DNA of 64,000 nt. It comes from Candidatus Woesearchaeota archaeon. Its GTDB lineage: Archaea; Nanobdellota; Nanobdellia; Pacearchaeales; GW2011-AR1. Positions 6,351 to 27,286 of this stretch are shown piece by piece; the stretch's first letter is position 1, and each line of letters opens with the position of its first letter. Under the pieces are notes generated by a model. That model saw only the letters and a list, made by a program, of their open reading frames with translations, did no database searches and was not told where the DNA came from. The DNA is taken from the NCBI GenBank assembly GCA_964647695.1, contig CAZYIS010000001.1, positions 48,275 to 112,274 on the forward strand, given 5' to 3'. The position numbers and the translations under genes are program-made.

Positions 6351-6380
6351 AACACCCACACCCTCACTTCCGTTGGAAAA
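6351..6380 (-). promoter_or_regulatory. ORB-like origin recognition box (reverse orientation)
   Basis: acacccacaccctcacTTCCGTTGGAAAaa. Dyad TTCCgtTGGAAA matches the ORB core tTCCAgTGGAAAc. The ACCC-rich tract is the complement of the ORB G-string. Confidence 0.6.
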
Positions 6381-6440
6381 ATAATTTAAAAAATATTTTA
6401 CGTGTAAACTGTTAATTAATAAGAACTTTAATATCTATTC

Positions 6441-6500
6441 TGTAATATATATAATATAATATATAATATATAATATATATATTTATAAATAAAAAATAGA
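6441..6500. repeat. (AT)n-rich duplex unwinding element-like tract
   Basis: tgtaatatatataatataatatataatatataatatatatattta lies between the two ORBs. Confidence 0.5.
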
Positions 6501-6543
6501 AAAAGAAAAAGTTAAAAAAATCATTTATAAATTTATTCATATA

Positions 6544-6576
6544 TTTCCAATAGAAATCATAGGGTGGGAGGGTAGG
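6544..6576 (+). promoter_or_regulatory. ORB-like origin recognition box (forward orientation)
   Basis: tTTCCAATAGAAAtcatagGGTGGGAGGGTAGG: ORB-like dyad followed by a G-string, inverted relative to the ORB at 6351-6380. Confidence 0.6.
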
Positions 6577-6752
6577 TCATTTTTTACTTTTTTCTATTAA
6601 TTTCATTCCTATTTCAATCTTTAATAATTCATTTTTAATTTTAAAAAAGTGCATTTCTAACTTTTTATCGTCTTTTTCTCTTGTTTCAGATACTAAAATA
6701 TATCTTAATGGATTATGGAAAAGTTTAAATATCATATCTTATACAATCAATT

Positions 6753-11254: not shown

Positions 11255-11587
11255 ATGCCCATCATATCCCAACAAAAAAAAGACAAAATATCTGAACAAA
11301 TACTACATTATCTTTTTGAAAACTCTCCCGAAAGCAAATTCACTTCCGACATAGCCAAAGAAATCGCTCGAGATGAAGAATTTATTAAAATAATTCTTGC
11401 TGATTTGTCAAAAAAAGGCTTAATCAATCTAATAACTAAAAATTCTTCCGGCGTTTCCTACCTAAAAAGACAAAGATGGCGTCTAAGCAATCAAGCATTC
11501 CAAATTTATTCCAATGCTCAGTCCCATAAAAACCAGAATGCTGTATTTCAGAATAACAATATTTATAATAACTCTGATGACTCTTGA
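11255..11587 (+). CDS. hypothetical small protein (possible winged-helix)
   Basis: 110 aa. Stop overlaps the start of the next ORF (ATGA-type overlap). Confidence 0.4.
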   Translation: MPIISQQKKDKISEQILHYLFENSPESKFTSDIAKEIARDEEFIKIILADLSKKGLINLITKNSSGVSYLKRQRWRLSNQAFQIYSNAQSHKNQNAVFQNNNIYNNSDDS

Positions 11588-12285
11588 ATTCTATGGACAA
11601 GGATCCAATTAAAGAAGCATTTACCCGCGCAAAAATTGATATTCAATCACTTAAAGACCAATTCTCTTCACTATTAAATGAAATTCAAGATATTAAACGA
11701 ACTCTCAATACTATATCTAATAAACCCTCAGACAGACAGATAGACCAACAGACAAACCAACAGATAAATAAGGCAGATATCCAACAAGAAGATGAATTAT
11801 ACGAACCTCCAACATCTGATTGGCCCTATAAACGTCTAAAACCCCATGTTTACAGACTTTCCACAAGAAATAGGGGGGTTCCAACAGACAGACAGACAAA
11901 CCAACAGACAGACAGACAAACACATAATAAAGGGAAAATCGACAAAATAGCAGCCATTGACCAGGTTTCCCAGATACTAGAATCCCTAGATTCCATGAAA
12001 AAAGAGCTCAGATCGAAGTTTAAACATTTAACCAATCAAGAAATGCTAGTTTTTTCAACCATCTATCAACTTGAAGAAGAAGGTTTTTCCGTCGATTATC
12101 CTCTAGTTTCTCAGAAATTAAGTCTTACCGAGTCATCCATACGAGATTATGTTCTTAAGCTAACAAAAAAAGGTATTCCCATCGGTAAAATCAAAGAAAA
12201 CAATAAGAAAATCTTCCTTAAAATCTCTTCAGAGTTCAAGAAATTGGCTTCTCTGGATACGATTTTAGCTTTGAGAGAATTATAA
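11584..12285 (+). CDS. coiled-coil protein with C-terminal MarR-like winged HTH and internal DRQTNQQT peptide repeats
   Basis: 233 aa. Repeats PSDRQIDQQTNQQ and DRQTNQQTDRQTH are encoded by CAGA-type tandem DNA repeats. C-terminal region reads as wHTH (LTNQEMLVFSTIYQLEEEGF...IRDYVLKLTKKG). Confidence 0.5.
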   Translation: MNSMDKDPIKEAFTRAKIDIQSLKDQFSSLLNEIQDIKRTLNTISNKPSDRQIDQQTNQQINKADIQQEDELYEPPTSDWPYKRLKPHVYRLSTRNRGVPTDRQTNQQTDRQTHNKGKIDKIAAIDQVSQILESLDSMKKELRSKFKHLTNQEMLVFSTIYQLEEEGFSVDYPLVSQKLSLTESSIRDYVLKLTKKGIPIGKIKENNKKIFLKISSEFKKLASLDTILALREL

Positions 12286-12597
12286 AAAATTAATTAACCG
12301 GTTAAACGAACAACGTTTAAGCTACGCTATTGCTAACCTCATCTTTCCAAAAAGCTAAAAATCAGCCCTTTTAAGCTCTATAAAGGCAAATCTTCAATTT
12401 TTCCTACAGTTTAAATCAGAGAAATTGATCATTTTGTTCCAATTTCTCCTCACTTTTGCTTGAACGTGAAAACCCTATTTTTCTATTAAACCTCATTCCG
12501 CCATTGTTTTTTGACACTATTACTCTCAAACTTTCGCTTTCAAGGCCCCTCAGTAAAACTCTCTCTTTTTGACTCAAATTGATCATTTTTTCCATAC

Positions 12598-13275
12598 TCA
12601 TGGGCCCTCACTTTTCACTTTTTCTGCTTCTTTTTCACTATTTTCATCATTTGACTTATTAACGCGAACCTTTTGACCCTTGTTAACTCTCACTTTTCCA
12701 TATTTTGCTAGTTTTTCACGTATTTCTGCCGGTACAAAGACCCTCTTTTTACCGTTTTTCTCTGTTATTTCCATAATTAATCCCTCATTCTTCTGTTTTA
12801 TAGCATTTATTTGTCCTCTTACGGTTGATCGCTCTTTTCCTAGTAAAAGTGCCAAATCTTCATAGCTTAGCTTCATTTCGCTGTTCATTAAGGTAAAAAT
12901 GAGGAGTCTTTCATTTGCACTAAGATTCTTTAGAATTTCGTAAAAATTGCCTGTTTGAACAGCTGTTTGAACAGCAATATCAACAGCTTCAACAGCTGTC
13001 TGTTTACCTAAAACAGCCGATTTCTTAAACACCTGTTTGTTTTTGTCGCCCTCAGAAACCACATCAACTCCTTCGCGCAAACTTTCGATCTCATCTTTAA
13101 TCGACGCTAATTCCAATTTTAACTCATTTAATACGTCAAACACCTGTTTGTCTCTCCCATCCAAGTACTTTATCCACTTTCCAACAGCATCAATATCTTT
13201 TTTAACAGAATTAAAACCTTCTTGAGTTTTTTCCTCAAGTTTATTTTCCTTTTTTTTAAATAACCAGTCTAACAT
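12598..13275 (-). CDS. coiled-coil protein with C-terminal winged HTH; contains QTAV repeats encoded by CAGCTGTTTG repeats
   Basis: 225 aa. C-terminal LSANERLLIFTLMNSEMKLSYEDLALLLGKERSTVRGQINAIKQ is wHTH-like. Convergent with the previous gene. Confidence 0.5.
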   Translation of the reverse strand: MLDWLFKKKENKLEEKTQEGFNSVKKDIDAVGKWIKYLDGRDKQVFDVLNELKLELASIKDEIESLREGVDVVSEGDKNKQVFKKSAVLGKQTAVEAVDIAVQTAVQTGNFYEILKNLSANERLLIFTLMNSEMKLSYEDLALLLGKERSTVRGQINAIKQKNEGLIMEITEKNGKKRVFVPAEIREKLAKYGKVRVNKGQKVRVNKSNDENSEKEAEKVKSEGP

Positions 13276-13772
13276 AATTATATATCAAGTCCTATACTAT
13301 ATAAACCTTACGTCTATAGCCTCTAAAACCGTCGATAACCTTTTTAATTTTTCATCAAAAAATGCTCAGACAAACACCCTTAAACAGCAGACAAACACCC
13401 TCTATGCTCCAAAAAACAGCTGTTTGAACACTCAAAAACACCTGTTTTATCAATAAAACTGCTTCAAACACTCTTAATTTTATTAAAAAATCATAAAAAA
13501 ATGCTCAAACTTTTAAGCAAAACCATTAATTTTGATTATCTATAAAAACCGTTAAAAATTAACAATTAAAAACCGTTAAAAATTGATAAAATCGATATTT
13601 TTAGCATATTTTCATCAAAAAATAACAAAACATTTAAATACCTCCTATTCCTATAATAAGTATACACCTCTTTTTCCCGGAGGAGGACGTTTGATCATTT
13701 AAATCTAGTACGATTAAACTTCCTCTTCTAGGAGTTCAACCTCTTTTTCAGACAAAAAGTTTAAAAACCTCC

Positions 13773-13985
13773 GTGTATTATAGATTATACGAGGACAAAA
13801 AAATAATAAATATGGTAAAATATGGTTCAATTTGGTCAACATCAGACATTTTTTGTCAAAAATGTCACAAAAACACCCGCGGAGTACAATTGAAAAGTAT
13901 AGAAATGGCAAAACATGGTCTTTCTTTAGAACTTTGTAGCTCGTGTATCTCCGAAATTGCCAGTGATTCTTCAAATTTCGTCTAA
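13773..13985 (+). CDS. small zinc-ribbon protein (CxxC...CxxC)
   Basis: 70 aa with CQKCH and CSSC pairs. Preferred over the overlapping antisense 93-aa ORF 13714-13995, which looks like junk. Confidence 0.3.
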   Translation: MYYRLYEDKKIINMVKYGSIWSTSDIFCQKCHKNTRGVQLKSIEMAKHGLSLELCSSCISEIASDSSNFV

Positions 13986-14001
13986 AAATTAACAAAAAAC
14001 G

Positions 14002-14253
14002 ATGAAAATACTAAAAACCAAACGATCCTTCCGGAAGGAGTTCCGCAGACAGATCAAAATGGCCCTTGTTGCAGCCATCGGATTCACCATTGCCTTTGCC
14101 TGGAGGGATTCTTTGTCCCAAATTCTTGAAAAAACCGCTGAAAACCTAGGTTACGAAGTTGGTTTGGGCTCTTCGCCCCTTTTTATGCCTTTTTTAACCA
14201 CAATTTTAGGCGTTTTGCTCATAATCCTACTCTCAAAAATCTTTTCCGACTGA
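14002..14253 (+). CDS. small membrane protein
   Basis: 83 aa, two hydrophobic helices. Immediately upstream of mscL. Confidence 0.45.
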   Translation: MKILKTKRSFRKEFRRQIKMALVAAIGFTIAFAWRDSLSQILEKTAENLGYEVGLGSSPLFMPFLTTILGVLLIILLSKIFSD

Positions 14254-14274
14254 TTTTTCAGCCCGTTAAGGTCT

Positions 14275-14619
14275 ATGAAAGGAGGTATCATCATGGTAGT
14301 TCAAAAAAGCATAGGTTTAGCCAAAGAATTCAGAGAATTTTTGAAAGAATATAAGGTCATAGGACTCGCTGTTGCCGTAATCATGGGTTTTGCAGCCAAT
14401 ACAATGATCAAATCTTTAGTTGATAACATAATAATGCCCCTAATAACTCCATTTATACCTGGAGGAGCCTGGCAAACAGCCGTTTGGAATTTCTGGGTCT
14501 GGAAAGGAATCGCCTGGGGATCGTTTTTATCAGCTTTAATCTACTTCCTCATCATAGCATTGGTTGTTTTCCTCATATCCAAGTTCATGCTTAAGGAAGA
14601 AAAGGTAACTAAGAAGTAA
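14275..14619 (+). CDS. mscL: large-conductance mechanosensitive channel MscL
   Basis: KEFREFLKEYKVIGLAVAVIMGFAANTMIKSLVDNIIMPLI matches the MscL N-terminus/TM1 signature. Two TM helices, about 110 aa. Confidence 0.8.
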   Translation: MKGGIIMVVQKSIGLAKEFREFLKEYKVIGLAVAVIMGFAANTMIKSLVDNIIMPLITPFIPGGAWQTAVWNFWVWKGIAWGSFLSALIYFLIIALVVFLISKFMLKEEKVTKK

Positions 14620-14636
14620 ACAGCTGTTTATTCTTA
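14617..14636 (+). terminator. palindromic TAAACAGCTGTTTA hairpin overlapping the mscL stop, followed by a T-rich tract
   Basis: Inverted repeat centred on CAGCTG. Same core as the 19446 element. Confidence 0.4.
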
Positions 14637-14684
14637 TCATTTAAACACCCATAAGCTTATATTTTTCATTTTTTTATTATATTT

Positions 14685-15164
14685 ATGCCACAAAAGGGGC
14701 TAGATAGGCAATCCGAACTCGAATCCCTTTCCCTAGAAGAGGTTCAAAGACGAAAAAACTGGAGACAAAGTCATCCAATTTATAGGAATTACGCACGCGG
14801 AAATCCGGTTGAACATCAACAAGCGGAGCTGTCCATTGGAAGGACGGACATCGAATTCAAACACCTTCCCCAACACCCGGAGAACATAGACCTCAATCCA
14901 GGAAAGCAAGGTCCAAGCCAACAGCTGTTGGACTCCGCATTACCCTATTCTTTTCATTCTCCAAAAAAAGGAAAGTCTCATTTTAGAAGAACCATCTTCC
15001 AAACAACCTATAGACATGGAGTTAACCAGCTCCTAAAAACCAAAGGCATTAATCCCTATGAGTGGGAACCTTTTGATAATTTTGTAATTATCTCAGCAGA
15101 AGAATCAGATTTTTTAGAAAATTTAGTCAAGGTATTCCCAGAATATTATGCTCAAACCTTCTAG
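14685..15164 (+). CDS. hypothetical protein (GC-elevated island gene)
   Basis: 159 aa. Local GC about 45% against a roughly 30% background. Amino-acid usage is Arg/Gln/His/Pro-rich, unlike the host core. Confidence 0.45.
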   Translation: MPQKGLDRQSELESLSLEEVQRRKNWRQSHPIYRNYARGNPVEHQQAELSIGRTDIEFKHLPQHPENIDLNPGKQGPSQQLLDSALPYSFHSPKKGKSHFRRTIFQTTYRHGVNQLLKTKGINPYEWEPFDNFVIISAEESDFLENLVKVFPEYYAQTF

Positions 15165-15280
15165 CATCGCTAACAACTTTAATTCACCTATAAAGTTCGG
15201 TTAATTATCCAAAATCTTACCAAAAAACCACTGCCTTTTAACAATTATTTTCAGCCATTTTAGCCTAATTTCATGGAAAA

Positions 15281-15290
15281 GTATAAAAAC
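15281..15290 (+). promoter_or_regulatory. TATA-like box GTATAAAAAC 30 nt upstream of ATG (leaderless-type promoter)
   Basis: cgAAAAGTATAAAAAC module repeated at 15758 and 17077. Confidence 0.45.
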
Positions 15291-15310
15291 TCGGCAGGGG
15301 TTAAATTTTT

Positions 15311-15652
15311 ATGGAAATAAAACCTCAAGATTTTCGTGGAAGTCTAGCAGCAATGCCTTTACAGGCAATGATAAGAGAAGAGCAGGAGCAGAATTCTCGA
15401 TATTCAGAAGAACACTGGAAATGGTACTGTGCACGAGCAGATAGACTTGAAAGAACAATATTTGGAACTTTAGCATTGGCTTCTGAAATGGTGGCTGCTT
15501 CTTACCTATACTCTGGGCTTACACTTAATAATCCAAAAGATTATCTAGATGCAGGAATTGTTGGTTTATTTGGCTTATTTTCTGGTGCCACAAGCTATTC
15601 CGCGCATAGATCTTTGCGTAAAACAAGCCAAAAACCAGCAGTTTCTAACTAA
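15311..15652 (+). CDS. hypothetical protein, cassette-like (shared promoter and C-terminal SQKPAVSN tail)
   Basis: 113 aa. Preceded by a GTATAAAAAC TATA-like box 30 nt upstream of the ATG. C-terminus and 3' flank shared with 15788-16057. Confidence 0.45.
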   Translation: MEIKPQDFRGSLAAMPLQAMIREEQEQNSRYSEEHWKWYCARADRLERTIFGTLALASEMVAASYLYSGLTLNNPKDYLDAGIVGLFGLFSGATSYSAHRSLRKTSQKPAVSN

Positions 15653-15757
15653 TTCTCAAGTTCGTTTAATCAAAAGGCAGCCAGGTGTCCTAAAAAATAA
15701 TAACTTCAGTCCATGTGAGGCCGAAGGCCGAACGCGCCCGGCATAAAACATCGAAAA

Positions 15758-15767
15758 GTATAAAAAC
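15758..15767 (+). promoter_or_regulatory. TATA-like box GTATAAAAAC 30 nt upstream of ATG
   Basis: Same module and spacing as 15281. Confidence 0.45.
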
Positions 15768-15787
15768 GCAACAATGGTTAATTTTTT

Positions 15788-16057
15788 ATGAAAGGATTTT
15801 ATATATTAAAAAGACCGGAAGGAAAGCCAATAGGCAGACCAAAATTGGTTTCCAGAGATGTTCCTTTTGATAGGGAAGATCTAGAGTTTAAAGTCAAATT
15901 AAGTCGCCCAAGAGGAGCAAACGCAGGATTAATCTCTGACGATTCTGATCGTCATTATGAAAAGCGCTCAATGGGATCATCACATATAAAAGCAAATTAT
16001 GTTACCTATGCAGTTCAGTACTATAAAATAAGCCAAAAACCCGCAGTTTCTAGCTAA
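15788..16057 (+). CDS. hypothetical protein, cassette-like (shared promoter and C-terminal SQKPAVSS tail)
   Basis: 89 aa. Identical promoter spacing to 15311. Shared C-terminal ISQKPAVSS and 3' flank. Confidence 0.45.
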   Translation: MKGFYILKRPEGKPIGRPKLVSRDVPFDREDLEFKVKLSRPRGANAGLISDDSDRHYEKRSMGSSHIKANYVTYAVQYYKISQKPAVSS

Positions 16058-16160
16058 AGGAGGAGTTCGCCTAATCACTCTTAACTGCCGTTTTGAGGTC
16101 CCTAACGTCGAAAGTACGCTTTAATCGATACATTTTTATACTCTTACTCTAATCAGACTT

Positions 16161-16445
16161 ATGGATAATTTAGTTTACAAATTAGAATTAGAAATAAAAG
16201 GTATGAAACTTCCAGGAGTTATAGAAGTACATGACGCATTACCTGTGGAAAAGCAAGTGTTATATCTAAATGATAATTTTAAAACTATTGCAAGTATAGA
16301 ATCTGGATACTATGTAGTTACTCAAGTAGTCAGATCTTTAGATTTGACTTTTTCAGATAGACGTCTAAAAAGGGCAGAACAATTAGATTTGCCGGTTGTT
16401 TTTGCAACATACTTTGGTAGAAATAGACCTCCAAAGTCAGAATAA
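16161..16445 (+). CDS. hypothetical protein
   Basis: 94-aa ORF in the repeat-rich island. Confidence 0.4.
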   Translation: MDNLVYKLELEIKGMKLPGVIEVHDALPVEKQVLYLNDNFKTIASIESGYYVVTQVVRSLDLTFSDRRLKRAEQLDLPVVFATYFGRNRPPKSE

Positions 16446-16506
16446 TTCTTATAGCTTAATCTTTCAATCACTGCTTAGAACTTTCAGCATAGATATAAAG
16501 TTCGTT

Positions 16507-16800
16507 TTAATACTCTCTAGGTAATTCGTTAGTTTGAAAATTTATGAATGCATCAACATGATCCTTTTCTAATTTTCTTCTAGTTCTGGAAACTATATAT
16601 GAAAGTAATGTTGAACCATAGCAAATAGGTGTCGCAACATCCACTATATCTGCAGCTATTCTTTCTTCAGCTTCAGGTAGTCTTCCGCCAGACATTGACT
16701 CTCCAGCAAGTTTGCTTACTCCATAAACTCCAACTAATCCTGAAACTAACGATGTCGTTACAAGACCTATTTCAATTTTTCTTAATAATCCTTTTACCAT
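16507..16800 (-). CDS. hypothetical membrane protein
   Basis: 97 aa. Hydrophobic N-terminus. Flanked on both sides by GTTCGTTTAAT motif copies. Confidence 0.4.
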   Translation of the reverse strand: MVKGLLRKIEIGLVTTSLVSGLVGVYGVSKLAGESMSGGRLPEAEERIAADIVDVATPICYGSTLLSYIVSRTRRKLEKDHVDAFINFQTNELPREY

Positions 16801-17076
16801 ATTATTTTAGTAAAACCTAGATTAATAAATCTTTCCGCTCAAACTTTCTAGCGCAAAAGAAGGGTTCGTTTAATTAATCAGAAAATTAAAAGTTCGCATA
16901 ACTAGTCTTTCATAATCTTTATATACTTCCTATGCTTTAGTATATTGTATCTACGGATACACCTCTTTTTCCCAGGAGAAGGAGTTTGACCAAATTCTAA
17001 ACAAACTCAGGTTGATCTCCTCTCTTGGAACATTTAATAATATTATATCGGAAGGGTTCGTTTAATTTTTAGAAAG

Positions 17077-17086
17077 GTATAAAAAC
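17077..17086 (+). promoter_or_regulatory. TATA-like box GTATAAAAAC 18 nt upstream of ATG
   Basis: Same module as 15281 and 15758. Confidence 0.4.
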
Positions 17087-17094
17087 GCTTTAGA

Positions 17095-17460
17095 ATGATA
17101 AAATTTATGCACAAAATAGGAAATACAAATTGCAGATTAGACATTTATGAAGTTCAAGGAGATATTGGAAAAGCAGTTCTTCGCCATTTATCCACAAGAG
17201 ATACTCTAGTAGAATATACTCCTAGAATAGGCAATAGTGCTGAACATTATTTTTCTATATCTATAGAAAGAGAAGGTTCTCAAAGGGAAGTTGTAATGCC
17301 TTATAGAGAAGCTAACTTTAGTGAAACTCTGAAAAGATTTTATGCTGCTGCTAAAAGAGTATTTAAAAAAGAAACTAATGAAAATGAATTAGCTGATTCA
17401 ATGAATTTAGTAAGAACTTTAAATGGTTCCCCTCAGCCAATTCTTAGTCCAAGTTACTAA
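17095..17460 (+). CDS. hypothetical protein
   Basis: 121 aa. Preceded by the same GTATAAAAACGC promoter module. Confidence 0.45.
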   Translation: MIKFMHKIGNTNCRLDIYEVQGDIGKAVLRHLSTRDTLVEYTPRIGNSAEHYFSISIEREGSQREVVMPYREANFSETLKRFYAAAKRVFKKETNENELADSMNLVRTLNGSPQPILSPSY

Positions 17461-17712
17461 TAAAATAATTAATTTTATTTCTTTTTTAGAATAAGTTTGC
17501 CTTTTTCAGTTTCTACTATCAATTCATCTCCGGCTTTAAACCCTGTTTGGCTTAGAATAACCTCTGGAACATTGATTTTATACTTATAATATGCTTGCCC
17601 TTTATACTCTCTAGATTTTTCTTTTAGTATTTTCATAATTAAAAAAGTGAGAATAACTATTTAAACTTTTAGAGACCGAAAGATTTATATACTTTAGAGA
17701 CCTAAATATATA

Positions 17713-18195
17713 ATGGTTAAGGGTTTATGTGTTAATTGTAAGAAAGAAAAAGAAATAGCTTTATCCGGAAAAGCAAAAGGATTGTGTAAAGTTTGTTATA
17801 AAAAATTAATTTGGAAACCTAAATTAATAGAATGTAAACGGTGCAAAAGAATGTTACCTAATCAGGCATTTGGTTTTTGTAAAAGCTGTTATCTCTCGGT
17901 CTTTCATATGGATAGAATGAAAGAACATAGTATTAAACAACATCACAATATTGATCCTAAATTATGGAAAGAAATAACTAAAAAATGTGTCGTTTGTGGT
18001 TTCGATAAAATAGTAGATTTACACCATCTAGATCACAATCATGATAATAATTCTAGGGAAAATCTTATAGGTTTATGCCCTAATCATCATAGAATGATTC
18101 ACAATATAAAAACTAGAAAAGAAGTATTAGATATTTTGAAGGAAAATGGATATGTTCCTCTTGAAAAATATCTAGATAACGAGTTCTATAAATAA
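17713..18195 (+). CDS. HNH endonuclease with N-terminal Cys4 zinc-ribbon pairs
   Basis: 160 aa. Four CxxC pairs. HNH motif DLHHLDHNHDNNSRENLIGLCPNHHRMIH. Confidence 0.75.
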   Translation: MVKGLCVNCKKEKEIALSGKAKGLCKVCYKKLIWKPKLIECKRCKRMLPNQAFGFCKSCYLSVFHMDRMKEHSIKQHHNIDPKLWKEITKKCVVCGFDKIVDLHHLDHNHDNNSRENLIGLCPNHHRMIHNIKTRKEVLDILKENGYVPLEKYLDNEFYK

Positions 18196-18245
18196 TACTT
18201 TTCAGTTTTCCATATGTATTTAAAACCCTATTTTATGAGATTTTC

Positions 18246-18737
18246 ATGGAAAATTTAATAAAATTAGAACAATTACCCTATGCCCGAGATCTAAATTTAA
18301 TTCTAAATTATCTAAAACTAGTTTTTCCTGATTTTCCAGAAAGAAATTGTCAGGATGCAGCTAGAATTACTTCAAGAGTAACTAAGTTAAGAGAGCTGGC
18401 CGGTTATTTTAGTGAAATACCTGGACAAAGCAGGGAAGAATGGCACGCTTGGAACTATGATCCTGAAAGAAAAATAATTGTAGATTTAACAGGTAAGCAA
18501 TTAGCAGAAGATTTACCTGAAATATTTATTACTTCTAAGCATGATCCCCGATATAGATTAACCCTAAGTAATACTCGTGAAGCACGAAGCGAATATGGCT
18601 GGTTTTGTGAACCTTCTTTTCTAAAAGATTACTATGCCTATGCTAAAAATCCTGAAAGATTCTACCTGGATGGAAGAAAAAAGATTATTAGAGATTTAGT
18701 TCCTGTTTCTTTAGACCTAGCATTGCAAATATCCTGA
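18246..18737 (+). CDS. hypothetical protein
   Basis: 163 aa. Co-oriented string downstream of the HNH gene. Confidence 0.45.
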   Translation: MENLIKLEQLPYARDLNLILNYLKLVFPDFPERNCQDAARITSRVTKLRELAGYFSEIPGQSREEWHAWNYDPERKIIVDLTGKQLAEDLPEIFITSKHDPRYRLTLSNTREARSEYGWFCEPSFLKDYYAYAKNPERFYLDGRKKIIRDLVPVSLDLALQIS

Positions 18738-18795
18738 TTAAAGGTCCAAAGCCAAGATTTAAATATTCAGAAAAAGAAATTTTCTAGCAAACAAC

Positions 18796-19110
18796 ATGTT
18801 AAACGGAGAAATTAATTTGGAAAATGTAGCAAAAAATGCTTACTTTGGAGCCCAGGGCAATACAATCAATGTAGTCTATGGTTTAGACATGGGTAGAGTT
18901 CAATATAAGGAATTTAGATTATCTGATGGAATATTTCTTACTTCCTTGGGCACAACCCTGGATGATTTTAAAACAAGATGTACTTCGGTTGTTCCTACAG
19001 AAGAAGTTAAAAGATTAGTCTATGAAACCAGAACTCCTCTTAGTATCAGTTTATTAGAAGAACAGGTGTTTGTTAACGCTAGAAACGATCAATTAACGGG
19101 GGCTGATTAA
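18796..19110 (+). CDS. hypothetical protein
   Basis: 104-aa ORF. Stop is 1 nt before the next start. Confidence 0.4.
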   Translation: MLNGEINLENVAKNAYFGAQGNTINVVYGLDMGRVQYKEFRLSDGIFLTSLGTTLDDFKTRCTSVVPTEEVKRLVYETRTPLSISLLEEQVFVNARNDQLTGAD

Positions 19111-19111
19111 A

Positions 19112-19447
19112 ATGAGTCTAATAAACAAAATTCAAAAAGGAATTGTTCTCGGAGCATCATCCGCCATACTATTAGGATTCGCAGGAGTTACATATTTTGG
19201 CAGCCAACATACTAAAGCCCAAGATGATTTGATGTCTTCTTCTAATATTACAGATTATCCTGCCCTTATGCAAGATTTAAACACAAAAATAGAATATTCT
19301 GCAGATTTAACCATTGCCGGCGGAGCCCTATTGGGACTTTATGGTCTTGGTTCTTTAATAAATCGAAGAAGAGACGCACAAAATAATCAAAAATTAATCA
19401 ATCTATTAAGACTGGTTGCTGATGAAAGAAGCAATGCTAAAAATTAA
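19112..19447 (+). CDS. hypothetical two-TM membrane protein
   Basis: 111 aa. Followed immediately by a perfect palindrome, AAACAAACAGCTGTTTGTTTTT. Confidence 0.45.
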   Translation: MSLINKIQKGIVLGASSAILLGFAGVTYFGSQHTKAQDDLMSSSNITDYPALMQDLNTKIEYSADLTIAGGALLGLYGLGSLINRRRDAQNNQKLINLLRLVADERSNAKN

Positions 19448-19467
19448 ACAAACAGCTGTTTGTTTTT
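19446..19467 (+). terminator. perfect palindrome AAACAAACAGCTGTTTGTTTTT directly after a stop codon (intrinsic-terminator-like)
   Basis: 10-bp inverted repeat plus T5. Confidence 0.45.
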
Positions 19468-19511
19468 ATCCTAAACAAAAGTTTTAAAAGAGATTAATTT
19501 ATGCTATTTTT

Positions 19512-19874
19512 ATGAAACTTGAAGATATTACTCCAGAATTAAAGGAAGGAGAGTTAGTTTTAATAAAAACTACTCAAAATTCTCATGCCCTGGGTACATT
19601 CAGCGATGGAAATGAAAAGAGAATATTCTTACATCAACCATCCTATTATCTAGGAAAACCAGTCAATCTAGACGGAAAGATCAAACTAGAAGTTTCTCCC
19701 GGAATAGATTCTCGTTCCTATAGTCAAATAGGCCAAATTTATCGTGGAAAGAAAGAAATTGTAAAATACTTAGAATCCCATCCCGATCTAAAAGGTCATG
19801 CCGATTGGGTTAAAAAACTAGATGCTCCATTTGAATTACCAAAAACCGATGTTCTACGTACACTAAGATTATAA
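19512..19874 (+). CDS. hypothetical protein
   Basis: 120-aa ORF. Confidence 0.45.
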   Translation: MKLEDITPELKEGELVLIKTTQNSHALGTFSDGNEKRIFLHQPSYYLGKPVNLDGKIKLEVSPGIDSRSYSQIGQIYRGKKEIVKYLESHPDLKGHADWVKKLDAPFELPKTDVLRTLRL

Positions 19875-19938
19875 TTTTTATAGCCCAGTAGTGATTTTTA
19901 CCAATTAACTTTAAATATCCTTCAAAAGTGAGATTTTT

Positions 19939-20460
19939 ATGACAAACAAAGCAAATTTTAATAGATTGTTGGAAAATCTATTCCATCCCGAAGGAGTTAC
20001 TCTAGAAATTGCTGAAAATAATCGTATCCAACTTCCAGTTAACTATGTTTGGACTCCTAGTGGCACTTACATATTACATAATTACTCTCCTAAGGAGTTA
20101 GCTTCATTAAAAATAAACTCACCTAACTTTATCCCTGACAAACCCTATAAATATATTCCTAAGGCAAGACTATCTTTTGATAGGTCCATGTCCCCTAATG
20201 AATTTAGAGAAAATAATTTAATGGTTGCCACTTTTGGTGATAGCGGAGCCGATACTCTTGCAGATATTGCTCGACAGTTTTCTCAAAAACCCTATATATT
20301 TGGACATCAAATCGGAGAAAATCATCCTTCTATTCTTTCAAGTTTAGCTTTAGACCTTCCATTTGTCTCGGGCGGTTTAGTCGTACACGCAAATGCCTAT
20401 GCCAATTCAGATGGCTATATAATCAATCATTTTAAACCTGAAGTTTATCATTTCGATTAG
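19939..20460 (+). CDS. hypothetical protein
   Basis: 173-aa ORF. Confidence 0.45.
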   Translation: MTNKANFNRLLENLFHPEGVTLEIAENNRIQLPVNYVWTPSGTYILHNYSPKELASLKINSPNFIPDKPYKYIPKARLSFDRSMSPNEFRENNLMVATFGDSGADTLADIARQFSQKPYIFGHQIGENHPSILSSLALDLPFVSGGLVVHANAYANSDGYIINHFKPEVYHFD

Positions 20461-20527
20461 TTCGTTCAAGCTCACTTAACAGAATTTTAATACATACCTC
20501 TATATACTTGAGAGTGTTTGATATAAT

Positions 20528-20674
20528 ATGGTAGCAATCAGTTTAACAGTATCTGCATTGCTTGCAGTAATCTTTGGAATTCTTATATTAATGTTCCCAA
20601 AAATGCTTAATAATTTAGTAGGATTATGGTTATTAGTTTTCGGAATTCTACAATTGATTAATATTTATTATTAA
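20528..20674 (+). CDS. small two-helix membrane protein (DUF3096-like)
   Basis: 48 aa, MVAISLTVSALLAVIFGILILMFPKMLNNLVGLWLLVFGILQLINIYY. Below the ORF-track length cutoff; read directly from sequence. Confidence 0.35.
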   Translation: MVAISLTVSALLAVIFGILILMFPKMLNNLVGLWLLVFGILQLINIYY

Positions 20675-20680
20675 ATCTTT

Positions 20681-21223
20681 TTAATCTACAGAAACAACTT
20701 CTTCTAAAGGTTCTACCAATCTTAGAGTTCCATTTTCAAAATCTCTATTCATAGCATCATTAAGTTCTTTTAATTCTTCAGCACTATAATAATTTCCTCT
20801 ATCTTTCCATTTTTGTTTTCCATCGGCCCAAGCACACCACGGCGATATTTCAAAAGCTTTTCTAGCCAAATATTTATCATTTAACTTAAACTTAACTGGA
20901 AGTCTGCTTTCTCTATGTTTTTGAGATGCCAAATCATAGATTTTACTTAATGCCCTAATTAATAATGCTTCTTGACTATCATCCAAATCAACTCTTTTCA
21001 CAGGATCTGGAGTTCCCACATTACTATAGGGCCCCGCGCCATACCAATAATTAGTTTTATGCATATCCATAACAAATCTTCCTTCACTAGGTCTTACCGA
21101 TAGACAAACATCTTCCAAATCTTTCTTTCCATCTTCTCTCACCCAAATATGATATCCTCTAGGTTGATTTGGAAGTCTAACATCTCCACCTTCAATTACT
21201 AGAATATGTTTATTACTTTCCAT
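20681..21223 (-). CDS. hypothetical protein, C-terminal part of an ORF interrupted by a single in-frame TAA
   Basis: 180 aa. The ATG at 21223-21221 abuts the TAA (21226-21224) of the upstream ORF in the same frame. Confidence 0.4.
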   Translation of the reverse strand: MESNKHILVIEGGDVRLPNQPRGYHIWVREDGKKDLEDVCLSVRPSEGRFVMDMHKTNYWYGAGPYSNVGTPDPVKRVDLDDSQEALLIRALSKIYDLASQKHRESRLPVKFKLNDKYLARKAFEISPWCAWADGKQKWKDRGNYYSAEELKELNDAMNRDFENGTLRLVEPLEEVVSVD

Positions 21224-21694
21224 TTACTCAAAGGCTCCAGGACCATGGGCCTGCAGTCCTTGTTCTTCAAGGAGTATTTTTATTTGCTTTTTAGCGCTTC
21301 TAAATTCAGTTGGGCTAACATAGGTCAAATATCCTGTTGTCAATCTAGAACCTGCACCATTTCTATCTTCAGTTTTATCAATAAAGAATCCTCTTAGATT
21401 TCTAGGATCATCTAATAAACTGTCTCCAAAGAAATCATATTTCCAGTAATTAAAATCATCTTTAATTGTTTCATCCCTATTCTTTAGGCCATGAACTATT
21501 TCTACTTCTGGGGCAGCTAGAGTTACCTGAACAACAACCGATGGAAATTTATTCAGTTTAACAAAACCTGTGGGGTCTTCATAGCTAGGATAAACTGAGT
21601 CACCTATTCTTTCAAGAATCAATGGATCTTCATAAACCAGTCTTCTAACATTTCCCTTTACATGTTTAAACCAAAATCTTTCTAATCCATTCAT
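21224..21694 (-). CDS. hypothetical protein, N-terminal part of an ORF interrupted by a single in-frame TAA
   Basis: 156 aa. Same reading frame as 20681-21223, separated only by one TAA codon. Confidence 0.4.
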   Translation of the reverse strand: MNGLERFWFKHVKGNVRRLVYEDPLILERIGDSVYPSYEDPTGFVKLNKFPSVVVQVTLAAPEVEIVHGLKNRDETIKDDFNYWKYDFFGDSLLDDPRNLRGFFIDKTEDRNGAGSRLTTGYLTYVSPTEFRSAKKQIKILLEEQGLQAHGPGAFE

Positions 21695-21767
21695 AAAAAT
21701 TCTGATTAATTCAATTATTTAAACATATAGGCTATTTTTTCTTTAATTTTGGTAGTGAAAATAACAA

Positions 21768-22085
21768 TTAGGATATATAACTTTCAATAGTATTAGGTAT
21801 TGGACTAATTTTTTTCCTTTTTTCATCAACATATCTTGCCCTTACTCTTTTTATTTCATAGGATCCAGGAATAAATATTTCATTAGATTTCATTCTTTGT
21901 TTAACCAACCCCGAAACACCATTCCAAAATTTATTTTCTTCAACACTTCCTGCAGACTCTGCTCTAGATTTATATTGTTCATAGTCCATATAATGTCTAG
22001 CTAAATTATCTATGGGGGCTATTAACGTATAAGTCGATAAGAATAGAATAAATACGGCGCGATCCATTTTCATATTAGGATACAT
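21768..22085 (-). CDS. small secreted/membrane-anchored hypothetical protein
   Basis: 105 aa with an N-terminal signal-like hydrophobic segment. Confidence 0.4.
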   Translation of the reverse strand: MYPNMKMDRAVFILFLSTYTLIAPIDNLARHYMDYEQYKSRAESAGSVEENKFWNGVSGLVKQRMKSNEIFIPGSYEIKRVRARYVDEKRKKISPIPNTIESYIS

Positions 22086-22114
22086 ATTGTTTAGGTTGAT
22101 TATATTATTTAAAA

Positions 22115-22648
22115 TTAATCAGTCTCTTCTTCATCGCTTTCTTCACCATCTTCAACTTCTTCAGAATGATGGTCATGATGATCGTGTTCAGATAAATCGC
22201 TTTCTTCATTAATGCTCTTAATTATTATCTTGAAAATTAAGGTCTTTCCAGCCATAGGATGATTCAAATCAATTTCAACCATATCTCCAACTATTTTATT
22301 AATCTTAACTGGGATTTCGTTTCCATCTGGAGTTCTAACATATAATTCCATTCCTGCTTCTATCTTTGCTCCAGTAGGCATTTTTCTCATAGGCACTTGT
22401 TGTACCAGTTTAGGATTATATTGACCATAGGCTTCTTCAGGTTTAAGAGTTATTTCTTTTTCATCTCCAATGTCTAATCCTATAACTCCAGTGTCAAACC
22501 CAGCAATCATTTGTCCTGCTCCTACTTCAAATTCCAATGGATGAGAATGGTCTCCATGCATAGATGTATCAAAAACAACTCCATTTTCAAATCTTCCTTC
22601 ATAGTCTACTCTTACCTTATCGCCTTTCTTAATAGCCATAGAAAACAC
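22115..22648 (-). CDS. FKBP-type peptidyl-prolyl cis-trans isomerase (SlyD-like, His/acidic C-terminal tail)
   Basis: KKGDKVRVDYEGRFENGVVFDTS, GAGQMIAGFD. Inserted IF-like domain. C-terminal HDHHDHH. The true start is probably the internal Met just before the KKGDK motif. Confidence 0.8.
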   Translation of the reverse strand: MFSMAIKKGDKVRVDYEGRFENGVVFDTSMHGDHSHPLEFEVGAGQMIAGFDTGVIGLDIGDEKEITLKPEEAYGQYNPKLVQQVPMRKMPTGAKIEAGMELYVRTPDGNEIPVKINKIVGDMVEIDLNHPMAGKTLIFKIIIKSINEESDLSEHDHHDHHSEEVEDGEESDEEETD

Positions 22649-22744: not shown

Positions 22745-22936
22745 CTAACCCATTTCTTGAAACAGCCAAACAAGAAAATAAATTATATATAATAATACCA
22801 CCAGTCCACCTATCCAAATAAGAATTCCAAGAATAGGTAAAAATATTCCTAGAAAAATAAATAAAATAGCTATCCAGAATATGGCTGAAAGCGATTCCAT
22901 TCTATTAAACAAATTTTTTATATTATAATAGCTCAT
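22745..22936 (-). CDS. small membrane protein
   Basis: 63 aa, two hydrophobic helices. Overlaps the stop of the upstream surface-protein gene. Confidence 0.35.
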   Translation of the reverse strand: MSYYNIKNLFNRMESLSAIFWIAILFIFLGIFLPILGILIWIGGLVVLLYIIYFLVWLFQEMG

Positions 22937-24531
22937 AGTTGTACATATTTATCTTTTCCAAATTTAAAAGGATTGCTACCCTTATTGGTTGAAAACCAAA
23001 CAATTAAAATTCCAATGATTATAATAATTATAATAATTATCACTATAATTATCCATCCTGCAGGGGATGAACTTGTTCCGGACCCGCTAGAACTTCCCGT
23101 ATTATTATTTGTTCCGGACCCGCCATCGCTTCCGCTACCACTATCACTTCCCAAAGCCGAGAAAGTTTCAGGAGTAACCAGCTCATGTATATAATTAATA
23201 GTTAGATTTACTTTTGTTGAATTGAGACCATTGACTCTAACTCTCAAATCATAATAATTATCTCCATCAATATTAAAGTCATGACTCTCCCCAGAGTTTA
23301 TCGTTGCCTGCTGAGAAGTTGAAGAAACATTAATTATCACTCTATCGGTTTGAATGTCCATAACTCCTACATAATGGGTTTCTCCATTAAATTTAATACT
23401 AATTCTATCCTTCTCGCTCATATTTTTATTAATACTTAACTTATAACTAAATTCTTCATCGGTGTAGGATGTAGTGCTCCAGGTCCAAGATGATGTATCT
23501 CCTGTACCTCCTCCAGAACTATCTCCAGTTACACAAGCCTCAGTTGTAAAATCTGACGTATTAATATTATAATTTCCAGCATAATCAAAACAAGTCACAT
23601 TATAGGTGTAGGTTTTTTCACAGCTAGCACTATCACTAAAGCTCCAAGTTGAACTACTAATATTCTCAGCATTACCTCTATCGCTATAGCTTCCAGCACT
23701 AGAATTTCTTTTCACAGAACAATAGTTAATTCCACTAACCGTATCATTAACCGTTATATTAAACTTAACACTAGTATTAGTAGTTGCCTTATCAATTATT
23801 TGAGGAACACTAGGAATACTATTATCTATCTTCACATTTAACAAAGTTAGGTTGCTCCGATAGCCTAGACTGTCATTGGCAATTATGGTTATATTATAGA
23901 CTGTTCCATCGGTCAATGCCGAAGTATTCCATGTGGAGTTCCAACTGGATAAACTAGTATTGCCAGCATATTTCAAAGCAGTAATATTGCCTGTTGAATT
24001 ACTAATATTAAAGGAAACGCTAGCAATAGATGAATAATCATTTAAAGTAACATTCAAGATATAATTTCCTGAGATGTTACTATTATTTCTTAGAACCACT
24101 GGAGTTATTATTGGTGAGGCAGTATCATTAACTGTAACTACCACGCTGTTATTTATGTTCGCTGTTGAATTAGAACTTATAACTATAATATTATAAATTC
24201 CAGGATAGGATGCAGTCGCATTAAACCAAAAGTACTTTGTTGTCAAATTTGGAATCATATTCAATGCGGACCAAGTTAGTTCATTCATACTACCTATGGA
24301 ATCAGTTCCATTGCTTGCATTTACAAAAGTAAAATTATTAGGTAAAACAATGGTTACTCCAGTTATATTTGCCAACGCACTAGTATCCGTATTATTTACA
24401 CTTATATTATACAAAACTGAGATATTTTGATTAACTGAGTAACTTTGAGGATTAATGTTATGGCCAGCAATAACCAATGCAACCAAAAATATGGTCAGTA
24501 TTGATCCGCTAATAATCTTATTACTTAACAT
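22933..24531 (-). CDS. cell-surface glycoprotein-like protein (many N-x-S/T sequons, Ser/Gly-rich stalk, C-terminal poly-Ile TM anchor)
   Basis: 532 aa. N-terminal signal peptide. More than 40 NxS/T sequons. C-terminal GSGSDGGSG stalk and IIIVIIIIIIIIIGILIVWF anchor. Confidence 0.6.
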   Translation of the reverse strand: MLSNKIISGSILTIFLVALVIAGHNINPQSYSVNQNISVLYNISVNNTDTSALANITGVTIVLPNNFTFVNASNGTDSIGSMNELTWSALNMIPNLTTKYFWFNATASYPGIYNIIVISSNSTANINNSVVVTVNDTASPIITPVVLRNNSNISGNYILNVTLNDYSSIASVSFNISNSTGNITALKYAGNTSLSSWNSTWNTSALTDGTVYNITIIANDSLGYRSNLTLLNVKIDNSIPSVPQIIDKATTNTSVKFNITVNDTVSGINYCSVKRNSSAGSYSDRGNAENISSSTWSFSDSASCEKTYTYNVTCFDYAGNYNINTSDFTTEACVTGDSSGGGTGDTSSWTWSTTSYTDEEFSYKLSINKNMSEKDRISIKFNGETHYVGVMDIQTDRVIINVSSTSQQATINSGESHDFNIDGDNYYDLRVRVNGLNSTKVNLTINYIHELVTPETFSALGSDSGSGSDGGSGTNNNTGSSSGSGTSSSPAGWIIIVIIIIIIIIIGILIVWFSTNKGSNPFKFGKDKYVQL

Positions 24532-24601: not shown

Positions 24602-24674
<73 letters not shown>

Positions 24675-24746
24675 CTTTTTTCTTATATTTTTCACAATCA
24701 AAATGTTTATAAAAAGAAATAATTAGATAATCGCATAAAATTAGAG

Positions 24747-26810: not shown

Positions 26811-26972
26811 ATGGATTTAATGATATTAACCCTTAGTAGTTTTGCCCTAATTTTTATTCTATGTTTATTAATTCTATTGCTATTGGTAAAAACCATGAAT
26901 ACTAAGTTAAGAAGAAAGGCAGATATGGATCAAATAAAGAACCATGTTTCCGGCAAGAAACATCATATTTAA
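26811..26972 (+). CDS. small hydrophobic ORF (53 aa)
   Basis: MDLMILTLSSFALIFILCLLILLLLVKT... Below the ORF-track cutoff. Overlaps the putative SRP RNA promoter region. Confidence 0.2.
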   Translation: MDLMILTLSSFALIFILCLLILLLLVKTMNTKLRRKADMDQIKNHVSGKKHHI

Positions 26973-26994
26973 AAACATCTTCTAGTTTCAAATT

Positions 26995-27230
26995 AGGTAG
27001 ACAACCTGGCGTGCTAGCCCTTCGCCATTCATCAGCGGGCTTTAGGTGGGGTCAAAGGAGCGAGTGAAATTGAAAGCTATGGGCCTTCAATCGGACGTTG
27101 ACGTATTGTCCTGTTCGATCTTGCTTCTGCGAAATGGGTCAGGCCTTGATCGGAGCAGCCCTAAACAGGACGCGTGGTGCTTACAGGGTAACAATGCCGA
27201 GAAAGATTGGAGATCACCTCTATTTTTCAT
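26995..27230 (+). ncRNA. signal recognition particle RNA (7S/SRP RNA), boundaries approximate
   Basis: A GC-rich island in AT-rich DNA. GGTCAGGCCttgatcGGAGCAGCCctaaACAGGACGCGTGGTGCttacAGGG aligns with the 4.5S/SRP helix-8 core (GGUCAGGUCCGGAAGGAAGCAGCC...GAUGACGCGUGUGCCGGG). A TATA-like ATATTTAAAAAC sits about 25 nt upstream. T5 at 27223-27227. Confidence 0.6.
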
Positions 27231-27286
27231 TTGAGCAAACTCCCCGTCTACATAATATATAAAAACCTGTTTCTATTCTTTTTATC

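Follow-up and report, generated by a model that had tools for sequence, protein, structure and literature searches.

The DNA analysed here is a stretch of 64 kb (the window; 32.7% G+C) whose source, judged by sequence, is a DPANN archaeon of Nanoarchaeota/Pacearchaeota type, because the Lhr-type helicase encoded at 8580-11183 (minus strand) matches proteins from 'Nanoarchaeota archaeon' metagenome-assembled genomes (MAGs) at 83% and 74% identity and those of Pacearchaeota and Woesearchaeota MAGs at 59-65%. At 13.3-22.1 kb, between a winged helix-turn-helix gene (wHTH3) and a gene for an FKBP-type isomerase, lies an array of about 20 short open reading frames (ORFs). It is a real accessory, variable block of orphan genes, whose content differs even between close relatives, and it is probably a native, vertically inherited, hypervariable region of the archaeal chromosome. 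A flexible, tRNA-adjacent and origin-proximal hypervariable region is of a known kind; what is new is the non-coding scaffold of this one, especially a structured, leader-like RNA (LE). Only DUF5654, MscL and DUF3096 rise above Pfam thresholds, and 14 of the approximately 20 ORFs have no match in Pfam, PHROG or PADLOC. The initial annotation had counted about 16 short ORFs without a family, with MscL, an HNH endonuclease and a DUF3096-like miniprotein as exceptions. The array is indeed mostly orphan and all three exceptions are matched, the HNH protein weakly; DUF5654 and a weak AbrB/MazE-like protein join the exceptions.

With wHTH3 as anchor, 80 metagenomic loci (L numbers) were recovered. 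The closest distinct relative is L018 (Ga0007882_10001033), which shares about 89% DNA identity with the window; all values of synonymous divergence (dS) and dN/dS between the two are Nei-Gojobori estimates. Short contigs identical to a stretch of the window are present in GCA_037135175.1 and in several ENA, JGI and Logan assemblies. The features of the array are as follows (aa, amino acids; TM, transmembrane; BRE, transcription factor B recognition element; R1, the covariance model of LE).

13276-13663: conserved spacer that separates the divergent wHTH3 gene (12598-13275, minus strand) from the first unit on the plus strand
13664-13745 (13634-13745 with promoter), plus strand: LE copy 1, made up of ACACCTCTTTTTCCC and an imperfect hairpin of 18 bp, with the TATA box TTAAATA 30 nt upstream
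13773-13985, probable ATG at 13812, plus strand: small Zn-ribbon protein (weak zinc-finger Pfam matches)
14002-14253, plus strand: DUF5654 small membrane protein (Pfam 1.1e-6), recurrent at the locus
14275-14619, plus strand: MscL mechanosensitive channel (Pfam 2.3e-21)
14685-15164, plus strand: orphan family A, 159 aa, R/Q/H/P-rich
15195, 15660, 16065, 16864, 16892 and 17056, with a variant near 16500, plus strand: GTTCGYNTAAT motif, mostly just past plus-strand stops
15311-15652, plus strand: strain-specific cassette, 113-aa protein with two hydrophobic or Gly-rich segments
15713-15743, plus strand: GC-rich palindromic element GTGAGGCCGAAGGCCGAACGCGCCCGGC, followed at 15753-15767 by BRE/TATA GAAAAGTATAAAAAC
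15788-16057, plus strand: orphan, 89 aa; in L018 a different ORF body with promoter and 3' end retained
16161-16445, plus strand: orphan, 94 aa
16507-16800, minus strand: protein of 97 aa whose hydrophobic or Gly-rich segments look 2-TM-like by eye; replaced in L018
16959-17042, plus strand: LE copy 2 (z=-2.7; R1 69.3 bits)
17095-17460, plus strand: orphan, 121 aa, with only identical copies as homologs; within the 17066-18219 indel relative to L018
17475-17636, minus strand: AbrB/SpoVT (MazE)-like small DNA-binding protein (weak match, Pfam 8e-4, below threshold)
17713-18195, plus strand: HNH endonuclease with N-terminal zinc ribbons (weak match, PHROG HNH 7e-6; motif DLHHLDHNHDNN...CPNHH readable)
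18246-18737, plus strand: orphan with invariant Cys35, His67-Ala-Trp and Asp80; duplicated in L102
18796-19110, plus strand: orphan, tightly packed with the next gene
19112-19447, plus strand: 2-TM-like small protein; 45% identical in L102
19512-19874 and 19939-20460, plus strand: strain-specific orphans
20528-20674, plus strand: DUF3096 2-TM miniprotein, 48 aa (Pfam 4.2e-9), recurrent at the locus
20681-21223, 21224-21694 and 21768-22085, minus strand: three lineage-restricted genes downstream of the FKBP and surface-protein genes
22115-22648, minus strand: FKBP/SlyD-type isomerase (Pfam 2e-20), right border of the variable array, conserved by synteny

A minus-strand ORF at 13714-13995 was rejected as spurious (dN/dS 1.7); the true gene is the Zn-ribbon gene on the plus strand, which is kept in five loci (L018, L005, L019, L024 and L021).

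The gene order Lhr, wHTH1, wHTH2, wHTH3, variable region, FKBP, surface protein, tRNA-Thr, Zn-ribbon and ArgRS is found in L018, L027, L037, L044, L048/L050 and L101. Within this order L048/L050 have 2.1 kb between wHTH3 and the Zn-ribbon gene before ArgRS, L027 has 6.8 kb, L037 8.4 kb, L044 8.9 kb and the window 11.5 kb. The array is thus not present or absent as a unit: its size changes gradually (2.1-11.5 kb), it is syntenic in L018, L101 and L102, and its dS is that of the flanks. In L018, whose Lhr is 98% identical at the protein level, orthologs are found for the genes starting at 14685 (80% identity), 16161 (66%), 18246 (64%), 18796 (77%), 20681 (67%), 21224 (64%) and 21768 (64%) and for DUF3096 (85%), and the spacer aligns inside a block of 88.7% identity. 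Between window and L018 the dS of island genes is 0.55-1.1, and that of Lhr 0.78; dN/dS is 0.18-0.39 for the orphans (0.18 for family A, 0.22 for 16161-16445, 0.33-0.39 for the three minus-strand genes at 20681-22085) as against 0.015-0.13 for Lhr, the wHTH genes, MscL and FKBP. Given these dN/dS values, the orphans with L018 orthologs are genuine genes on which purifying selection acts. Their divergence went along with that of the flanks, but at non-synonymous sites it was 2-25 times faster than in the core genes.

Alignment of the window with L018 gives a mosaic, in which homologous pieces are split by clean indels or non-homologous replacements. The breaks are:

15272-15680: unit of promoter, ORF 15311-15652 and motif, missing from L018
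15788-16057: body of this ORF
16512-16837: within and past the ORF at 16507-16800
17066-18219: an orphan, the AbrB-like gene and the HNH gene
19111-20476: three ORFs (19112, 19512 and 19939), opposite 1.9 kb in L018 that include a 270-aa multi-TM protein
20674-20865: an extra 309-aa gene in L018

The ORFs at 15311-15652 and 15788-16057 have a common promoter and 5' end and a common 54-nt 3' end (the C-terminal SQKPAVS plus the motif) around unrelated bodies, and L018 has at this position a single ORF with a third body between the same ends. Apart from this C-terminus, an all-against-all BLASTP search gave no paralogy among the island ORFs. The N-terminus of the protein at 16507-16800 resembles an ORF of the L101 island (pairwise E=3e-7 over 35 aa).

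More distant loci repeat this picture. The third lineage, L102, keeps the families of 18246, 19112, 20681, 21224 and 21768 (those of the last three at 30-54% amino-acid identity), and in it the 21768-, 21224- and 20681-like genes face a 19112-like gene, a 104-aa gene and two 18246-like genes. Because both facing groups are kept there, the convergent junction at about 19.1-20.9 kb is an insertion hot spot. L101 carries on one contig PolD-DP1, Cdc6, Lhr, the three wHTH genes, two copies of DUF5654 and a homolog of family A (32% identity), and continues through to ArgRS; its variable part holds about a dozen small, mostly Pfam-less ORFs together with DUF3096, DUF4397 and a weak PemK match. Two pairs of loci with 93-97% DNA identity, L044/L047 and L048/L050, also differ by cassette-sized pieces in the interval. 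Some residents recur: DUF5654 in 35 loci, a small membrane protein of 55 aa in 34, DUF3096 in 25, the AbrB-like gene in 11-16 depending on the search (16 by an iterated search with hidden Markov models, HMMs) and the HNH gene in 8-9 relatives at this site, with 47-59% identity. The divergent AbrB-like/HNH gene pair recurs as such in relatives, with synteny in L027 and L049. Across the clade the divergence of DUF5654, DUF3096, AbrB and HNH is similar to that of the flanking genes. MscL is patchy, being found in the window, L018, L005 and L052, and family A directly follows DUF5654 in L018, L101 and L046.

Around the AbrB-like gene, contigs from other assemblies of the same population stop at about 17607 and 17701, and contig L001 departs from the window at 21840, inside the ORF at 21768-22085; we read these ends and this divergence as signs of strain-level variants. 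A gene for a 55-aa small protein also lies 49 kb from the locus (62459-62626, plus strand), and its homologs directly adjoin wHTH3 in 34 relatives; this gene has either moved out of the locus or is a paralog. In the relative with 74% Lhr identity the equivalent region (L006, 1-5400) has wholly different genes: a Doc-like toxin motif HPFTDGNKKAA (by eye), a small partner ORF, a wHTH gene, a fragment resembling an insertion sequence, and three R/H/Q-rich orphans with high G+C at the first and second codon positions (GC1 and GC2) and native G+C at the third (GC3), as in the window orphans.

The initial annotation took the block as a compositionally atypical island with clearly higher GC in places. 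A raised GC is true of 13.9-16.0 kb, with a mean GC of 0.382 and a peak of 0.453 at 14681 (300-nt window) inside the ORF at 14685-15164, but not of 16.0-21.7 kb (0.3215); the island as a whole has 0.334 and the remaining window 0.326. The tetranucleotide distance exceeds z=3 only in 3-kb windows covering about 11-16 kb, a stretch that takes in the conserved wHTH genes with CAGAC-type repeats, while 16-22 kb lies at or below the window average (z<0.5). The peptide repeats of wHTH2 and the spacer probably drive the outlier at 10.5-16 kb. GC3 is raised in three genes only, DUF5654 (0.476), MscL (0.417) and the ORF at 14685-15164 (range 0.38-0.48), and it is raised in the same sub-block of L018. 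As a test of foreign composition, then, 13.9-16 kb alone deviates and 16-21.7 kb is native. A uniform composition and the presence of the same genes as core genes in relatives had been named as observations that would speak against a foreign block; composition is largely uniform, but the orphans are not core genes, being confined to the nearest one or two lineages, and this expectation is thus borne out by half.

The claimed richness of the proteins in Arg, Gln, His, Pro and Trp, at the expense of Lys, Ile and Asn, is significant when the 14 orphans are compared with 51 other genes of the window. R+Q+H+P+W make up 0.175 of the orphan residues versus 0.113 (p=1e-5), with enrichments of 1.8x for Arg, 1.6x for Pro and 1.6x for His, and K+I+N make up 0.178 versus 0.261 (p=2e-7). 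GC1 (0.464 vs 0.411) and GC2 (0.364 vs 0.322) are raised but GC3 is lower (0.212 vs 0.243), so the bias lies at the protein level and not in synonymous usage. The same pattern of high GC1 and GC2 with native GC3 is seen in the non-homologous orphans of L006. It is equally compatible with old, ameliorated acquisitions and with a property of the protein class.

The orphans are narrowly distributed. The queries each have 0-3 non-identical homologs (0-2 at 55% identity or more) among 1.8-5.8e9 proteins. Among 5.8e9 clustered proteins two are non-identical homologs of the protein at 18246-18737, and for that at 19939-20460, searched in the same number, there is none but itself; that at 14685-15164 has three. 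For 21224-21694 an exhaustive HMMER scan of 1.84e9 representative proteins gave one representative, 55% identical. Iterated HMM searches of the relatives' islands added only L046 and L101, both for the 14685 family.

LE is the most interesting part of the non-coding scaffold and is an undescribed structured leader-like RNA. It is about 82 nt long and consists of ACACCTCTTTT(T)CCC (in RNA ACACCUCUUUU(U)CCC) followed by the 18-bp imperfect hairpin, with the TATA box at -30. Copy 1 folds at -25.8 kcal/mol with z=-3.6 on the plus strand versus -1.0 on the minus strand, and scores 85.6 bits with R1; significant folding of LE is confined to the plus strand (minus z about -1). Over 13 copies 96% of pair cells are standard, as against at most 63% in slid controls; in seven pairs the variation passes by way of G-U, and in three it is compensatory. 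With R1, 16 loci yield 21 same-strand copies that score 29-91 bits (20 reach at least 48 bits); scores on the reverse strand are 23-34 bits. The loci are the window (two copies), L018, L019 (three), L101 (two) and 12 others, with 1-3 copies each, and the copies stand 16-237 nt before DUF5654, DUF3096, Zn-ribbon, MscL, the 55-aa protein or orphans. The non-coding stretch 16837-17066 around copy 2 is 91% identical to L018, above the neighbouring ORFs. Rfam gave nothing at E<=1 over 13200-22200, with only chance miRNA-like hairpins (E about 1-7) on the LE and GC-element regions.

The GC-rich palindromic element has the consensus GTGAGG-CGC/CC-GAA-GCGCC/GGCC-GAA-CGCGCCC and lies 5-15 nt upstream of BRE/TATA. 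There are 20 instances in 18 distinct loci, all in the variable region and in a single orientation; the 20-mer GGCCGAAGGCCGAACGCGCC is exact in L006 (twice), L031 and L050. The hairpin is GGCGC-GAA-GCGCC in 14 cases and GGCC-GAA-GGCC in 6, followed by GAACGCGCCC, and in many loci AAAGTTCGYTTTAAT precedes the element by 53-74 nt. The ORF downstream is different in every locus. RNAalifold supported a 3-bp hairpin only; since only two arm variants occur, an RNA hairpin and a dimeric DNA operator are indistinguishable. The element is a candidate operator at which the wHTH proteins encoded nearby may act. The left border, described earlier as repeat-bearing, is so: the spacer (13276-13660) lies beside the wHTH genes and contains direct repeats of 36 nt (three copies), 23 nt (two) and 14 nt (two) as well as AAACAGCTGTTT-type palindromes, and these repeats and palindromes may likewise be operator sites. 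AAACAGCTGTTT-type motifs are also carried by the wHTH3 gene itself.

GTTCGYNTAAT occurs 15 times in the window versus 6.4 expected, and six plus-strand copies cluster within 15195-17066. In the variable region of relatives 49 copies are on the same strand and 6 on the opposite strand, a bias limited to loci of the closer clade, whose wHTH3 is at least about 58% identical. Of the copies, 68% follow a same-strand stop by no more than 60 nt, versus 18% of random positions. A strong promoter consensus, GAAARGTATAAAAAC, is found at 15276, 15753 and 17072.

As to function, the orphan products may act at the cell envelope or host interface. We infer this from the small membrane proteins DUF5654, MscL and DUF3096, the 2-TM-like products at 15311, 16507 and 19112, the N-terminal anchor of the protein at 21768-22085 and the fast-evolving surface protein next to the array; about 9 of the 23 genes within 14.0-24.5 kb are membrane-associated. 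For 18246-18737 there is a more specific lead. In the alignment of its family Cys35 is present in all five sequences covering the column, and His67-Ala-Trp and Asp80 in all six. We take these Cys, His and Asp residues to be those of a transglutaminase/papain fold, which their order and spacing fit, and sub-threshold Pfam matches to YunG (PF24585) are seen in four of the six members (at best 7e-4 and 20 bits, the cutoff being 27). Transglut_core gave no match in Pfam and no PDB profile matched the family. A transglutaminase/papain-like cysteine peptidase is plausible here, as a lead only. PDB profile searches returned only a chance tape-measure match, which was discarded.

The surroundings of the array are as follows.

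3336-4937, minus strand: PolD DP1 (Pfam), left flank
4949-6157, minus strand: Cdc6/Orc1 (Pfam), left flank
6158-6750: gap beside Cdc6/Orc1, about 600 bp, 19-23% GC, with AT-rich repeats
beyond the gap: a metallophosphatase gene, Lhr and three wHTH/coiled-coil genes (11255-13275)
22933-24531, minus strand: Ig-like surface protein, right of FKBP
24602-24675: tRNA-Thr(CGU), then a double zinc-ribbon gene and ArgRS

The AT-rich gap is a probable replication origin, about 7 kb from the array. The surface protein is Asn/Ser/Thr-rich with a C-terminal anchor and is 52% identical to its L018 ortholog versus 98% for Lhr; the array is thus adjoined by a fast-evolving envelope protein. On the left, wHTH2 contains at 11717-11935 (plus strand) CAGACAGAC/CAAACCAACAGAC repeats that encode DRQTNQQT-like peptide repeats. 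The segment 12416-13275 (minus strand), which comprises wHTH3 and a 61-aa gene downstream of it, has a dS of only 0.12-0.18 relative to L018, while its neighbours have 0.43-1.1, a difference that points to a recent recombination event between lineages or to constrained synonymous sites. GC peaks most strongly in the window at 26950-27250 (0.53 in 200 nt); this spike overlaps a 62-aa ORF (27046-27234, GC 0.49) that is conserved in relatives, and Rfam returned nothing for it at gathering threshold.

Taken as a native, hypervariable accessory region, the locus holds at a fixed site a few recurrent genes for small membrane and DNA-binding proteins (DUF5654, MscL, DUF3096, AbrB-like and HNH) and about 14 lineage-restricted genes. 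These are gained, lost and replaced as cassette-sized pieces at intergenic junctions, chiefly at about 19.1-20.9 kb, within a conserved scaffold of BRE/TATA promoters, two LE copies, the GC palindrome and GTTCGYNTAAT. Turnover might be driven by diversifying or relaxed selection at the envelope/host interface, and the adjacent wHTH proteins might regulate the array through the GC palindrome and the spacer repeats. Several points weigh against this reading. Five to seven ORFs are without an L018 ortholog (15311, 15788, 16507, 17095, 19512 and 19939, with 19112 shared only with L102). Proteins rich in Arg, Pro and His and poor in Lys, Ile and Asn, with native GC3, also fit old acquisitions from higher-GC donors that have since ameliorated. 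Some lateral input to the DUF5654-MscL-14685 sub-block (14.0-15.2 kb), probably from related lineages, is likely in view of its raised GC3, both here and in L018, and of the patchy distribution of MscL among relatives; the sub-block may have been exchanged with a higher-GC relative, and the MscL of L052 is of higher GC. AlphaFold2 models were unusable for fold search, with mean confidence scores (pLDDT) of 34.5 for the 18246 family and 46.6 for the 14685 family, which may hint at disorder. Finally, both the role of the orphan products at the envelope or host interface and the control of the array by the wHTH proteins are matters that we infer.

The initial annotation proposed a horizontally acquired element, possibly a plasmid or virus remnant. 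On a reading of this kind the common ancestor of the clade would have received a provirus or plasmid near tRNA-Thr, and this element, now old and degraded, would since have lost its integrase, ameliorated and become partly domesticated. The tRNA-Thr beside the block, the many small ORFans together with an HNH protein and an AbrB-like regulator, the raised GC1 and GC2 with native GC3, and the absence of the island from L048 and L050 are what such a history would leave, and a direct repeat of about 80 nt (13664/16959) brackets the higher-GC sub-block. That repeat is the only long direct repeat, but it is LE, and since LE is a promoter-linked structured RNA whose variation preserves G-U pairs and which occurs in 1-3 copies in 16 loci, it is not an attachment-site (att) scar. 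No repeated tRNA-Thr fragment marks a tRNA-targeted integration: neither half of the tRNA has a second copy at up to 3 mismatches within the window. The absence of an integrase, already remarked in the initial annotation, was confirmed, Pfam and PHROGs showing no integrase or recombinase, replication (Rep), partition or virion gene (capsid and terminase included) among all 20 ORFs; the only PHROG matches are MscL-like, HNH and AbrB-type, and the three orphans searched in IMG/VR have no relatives there. With DUF5654, DUF3096, AbrB and HNH diverging about as the flanks do, and with synteny, flank-like dS and gradual change of size over the clade, we regard an old integrated element as unlikely, and the proposed acquisition is not borne out. 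A defence island, also suggested at first, would combine the HNH protein, the AbrB/MazE-like antitoxin and further partners into anti-virus systems. The HNH/AbrB-like gene pair, the toxin-antitoxin genes in the regions of relatives (a weak PemK in L101, the Doc-like motif seen by eye in L006) and the high gene turnover typical of such islands agree with it. PADLOC-DB v2, however, gave no significant match for the 20 ORFs, the best being noise (a homing endonuclease at 1.4e-3 and, for the 48-aa DUF3096 protein, a SLATT-like match at 5e-3), the profiles matched by the HNH protein are of homing-endonuclease type, and no CRISPR, restriction-modification, abortive-infection (Abi), CBASS or similar components were found. 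For known systems the defence reading is largely refuted, and as a whole it is highly improbable.

The scaffold itself invites two further explanations. One is a locus for cassette exchange and expression, analogous to an integron without a tyrosine recombinase, in which the punctuation would serve as recombination sites, perhaps aided by the HNH protein or by homologous recombination. Integrons and CALINs (clusters of attC sites lacking integron-integrases) exist in archaea, including Nanoarchaeota (PMC9668308). In the array the oriented motif past the ORF stops is specific to locus and clade, 15272-15680 is cleanly missing from L018, the conserved ends of 15788-16057 enclose a different body there, the 15311 and 15788 ORFs join different bodies to common promoters and 3' ends, and the conserved GC element and promoter precede a different ORF in each locus. 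Three window/L018 breakpoints fall within 10 nt of the 3' end of the motif, which is suggestive; but the insertion breakpoint between L044 and L047 is about 56 nt away, so cassette junctions at the motif were rejected as a rule. Breakpoints between genes are expected in any case, because selection removes insertions inside genes. The motif has no inverted partner, Pfam shows no IntI or recombinase domain in the island, a scan for attC core sites (RYYYAAC...GTTRRRY) gave one candidate pair inside coding sequence instead of an array of hairpins, and most homologous cassettes have co-diverged with the flanks. Exchange of this kind is quite unlikely. The other explanation is a dedicated expression site for variable genes, in which the wHTH proteins, palindromic operator with its strong promoter, LE and motif would form a fixed scaffold, both regulatory and recombinational, for shuffled, unrelated small ORFs of the envelope or host interface. 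We hold this to be improbable; if true, it would be a functional analogue of integron or antigenic-variation loci without a known recombinase.

A native, hypervariable accessory region thus remains the preferred reading. DPANN archaea have tiny, host-dependent genomes dominated by hypothetical proteins, and here a large part of one genome's orphans would belong to a site-specific, vertically inherited, fast-diversifying array rather than to foreign DNA. The case also warns that amino-acid or GC1/GC2 composition, taken by itself, can lead to horizontal transfer being over-called. The locus should be useful for asking where and how DPANN genomes innovate, with adjoining wHTH regulators that possibly control genes for small membrane proteins. 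LE, for which the R1 covariance model now exists, the GC palindrome and the 3' motif are three testable elements absent from Rfam.

Among known systems, integron arrays and CALINs (PMC9668308) share with the array short, mostly co-oriented genes of no assigned function, a motif after the ORF and gain and loss of cassette-sized pieces, and a CALIN needs no adjacent integrase; the array differs in having neither attC R''/R' hairpins nor IntI, a BRE/TATA promoter for each ORF, a motif of 11-14 nt with no palindromic partner, and breakpoints that are not consistently at the motif. Archaeal proviruses and plasmids at tRNA genes resemble it in the nearby tRNA-Thr, the small ORFans and the HNH gene, but the array is syntenic and co-diverging and is devoid of integrase, att duplication and structural or replication genes. 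The vsp, vlp and vsa loci of Mycoplasma are variable surface-protein loci with conserved 5' regions. Like them, the array places a conserved promoter or leader before unrelated or divergent bodies and lies near envelope genes; unlike them, it shows no invertase or phase-variable repeats, has only 2-3 ORFs with common ends, and its products are mostly not lipoproteins and are without signal peptides. Flexible genomic islands, or plasticity zones, often lie beside tRNA genes and are rich in ORFans and cell-envelope genes; PMC1285063, for example, deals with novel genes in islands. The array has their features of a conserved, core-flanked site bounded by core genes and a tRNA, content that differs in close relatives, lineage-restricted and fast-evolving genes that are mostly ORFans, an adjoining fast-evolving surface protein, and assemblies that break inside. 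It differs from them in its small size (about 8 kb), in having no genes of glycosyltransferase or O-antigen type, in its native synonymous composition, in residents that largely co-diverge with the flanks, and in the scaffold of LE, GC palindrome and 3' motif that runs through it.

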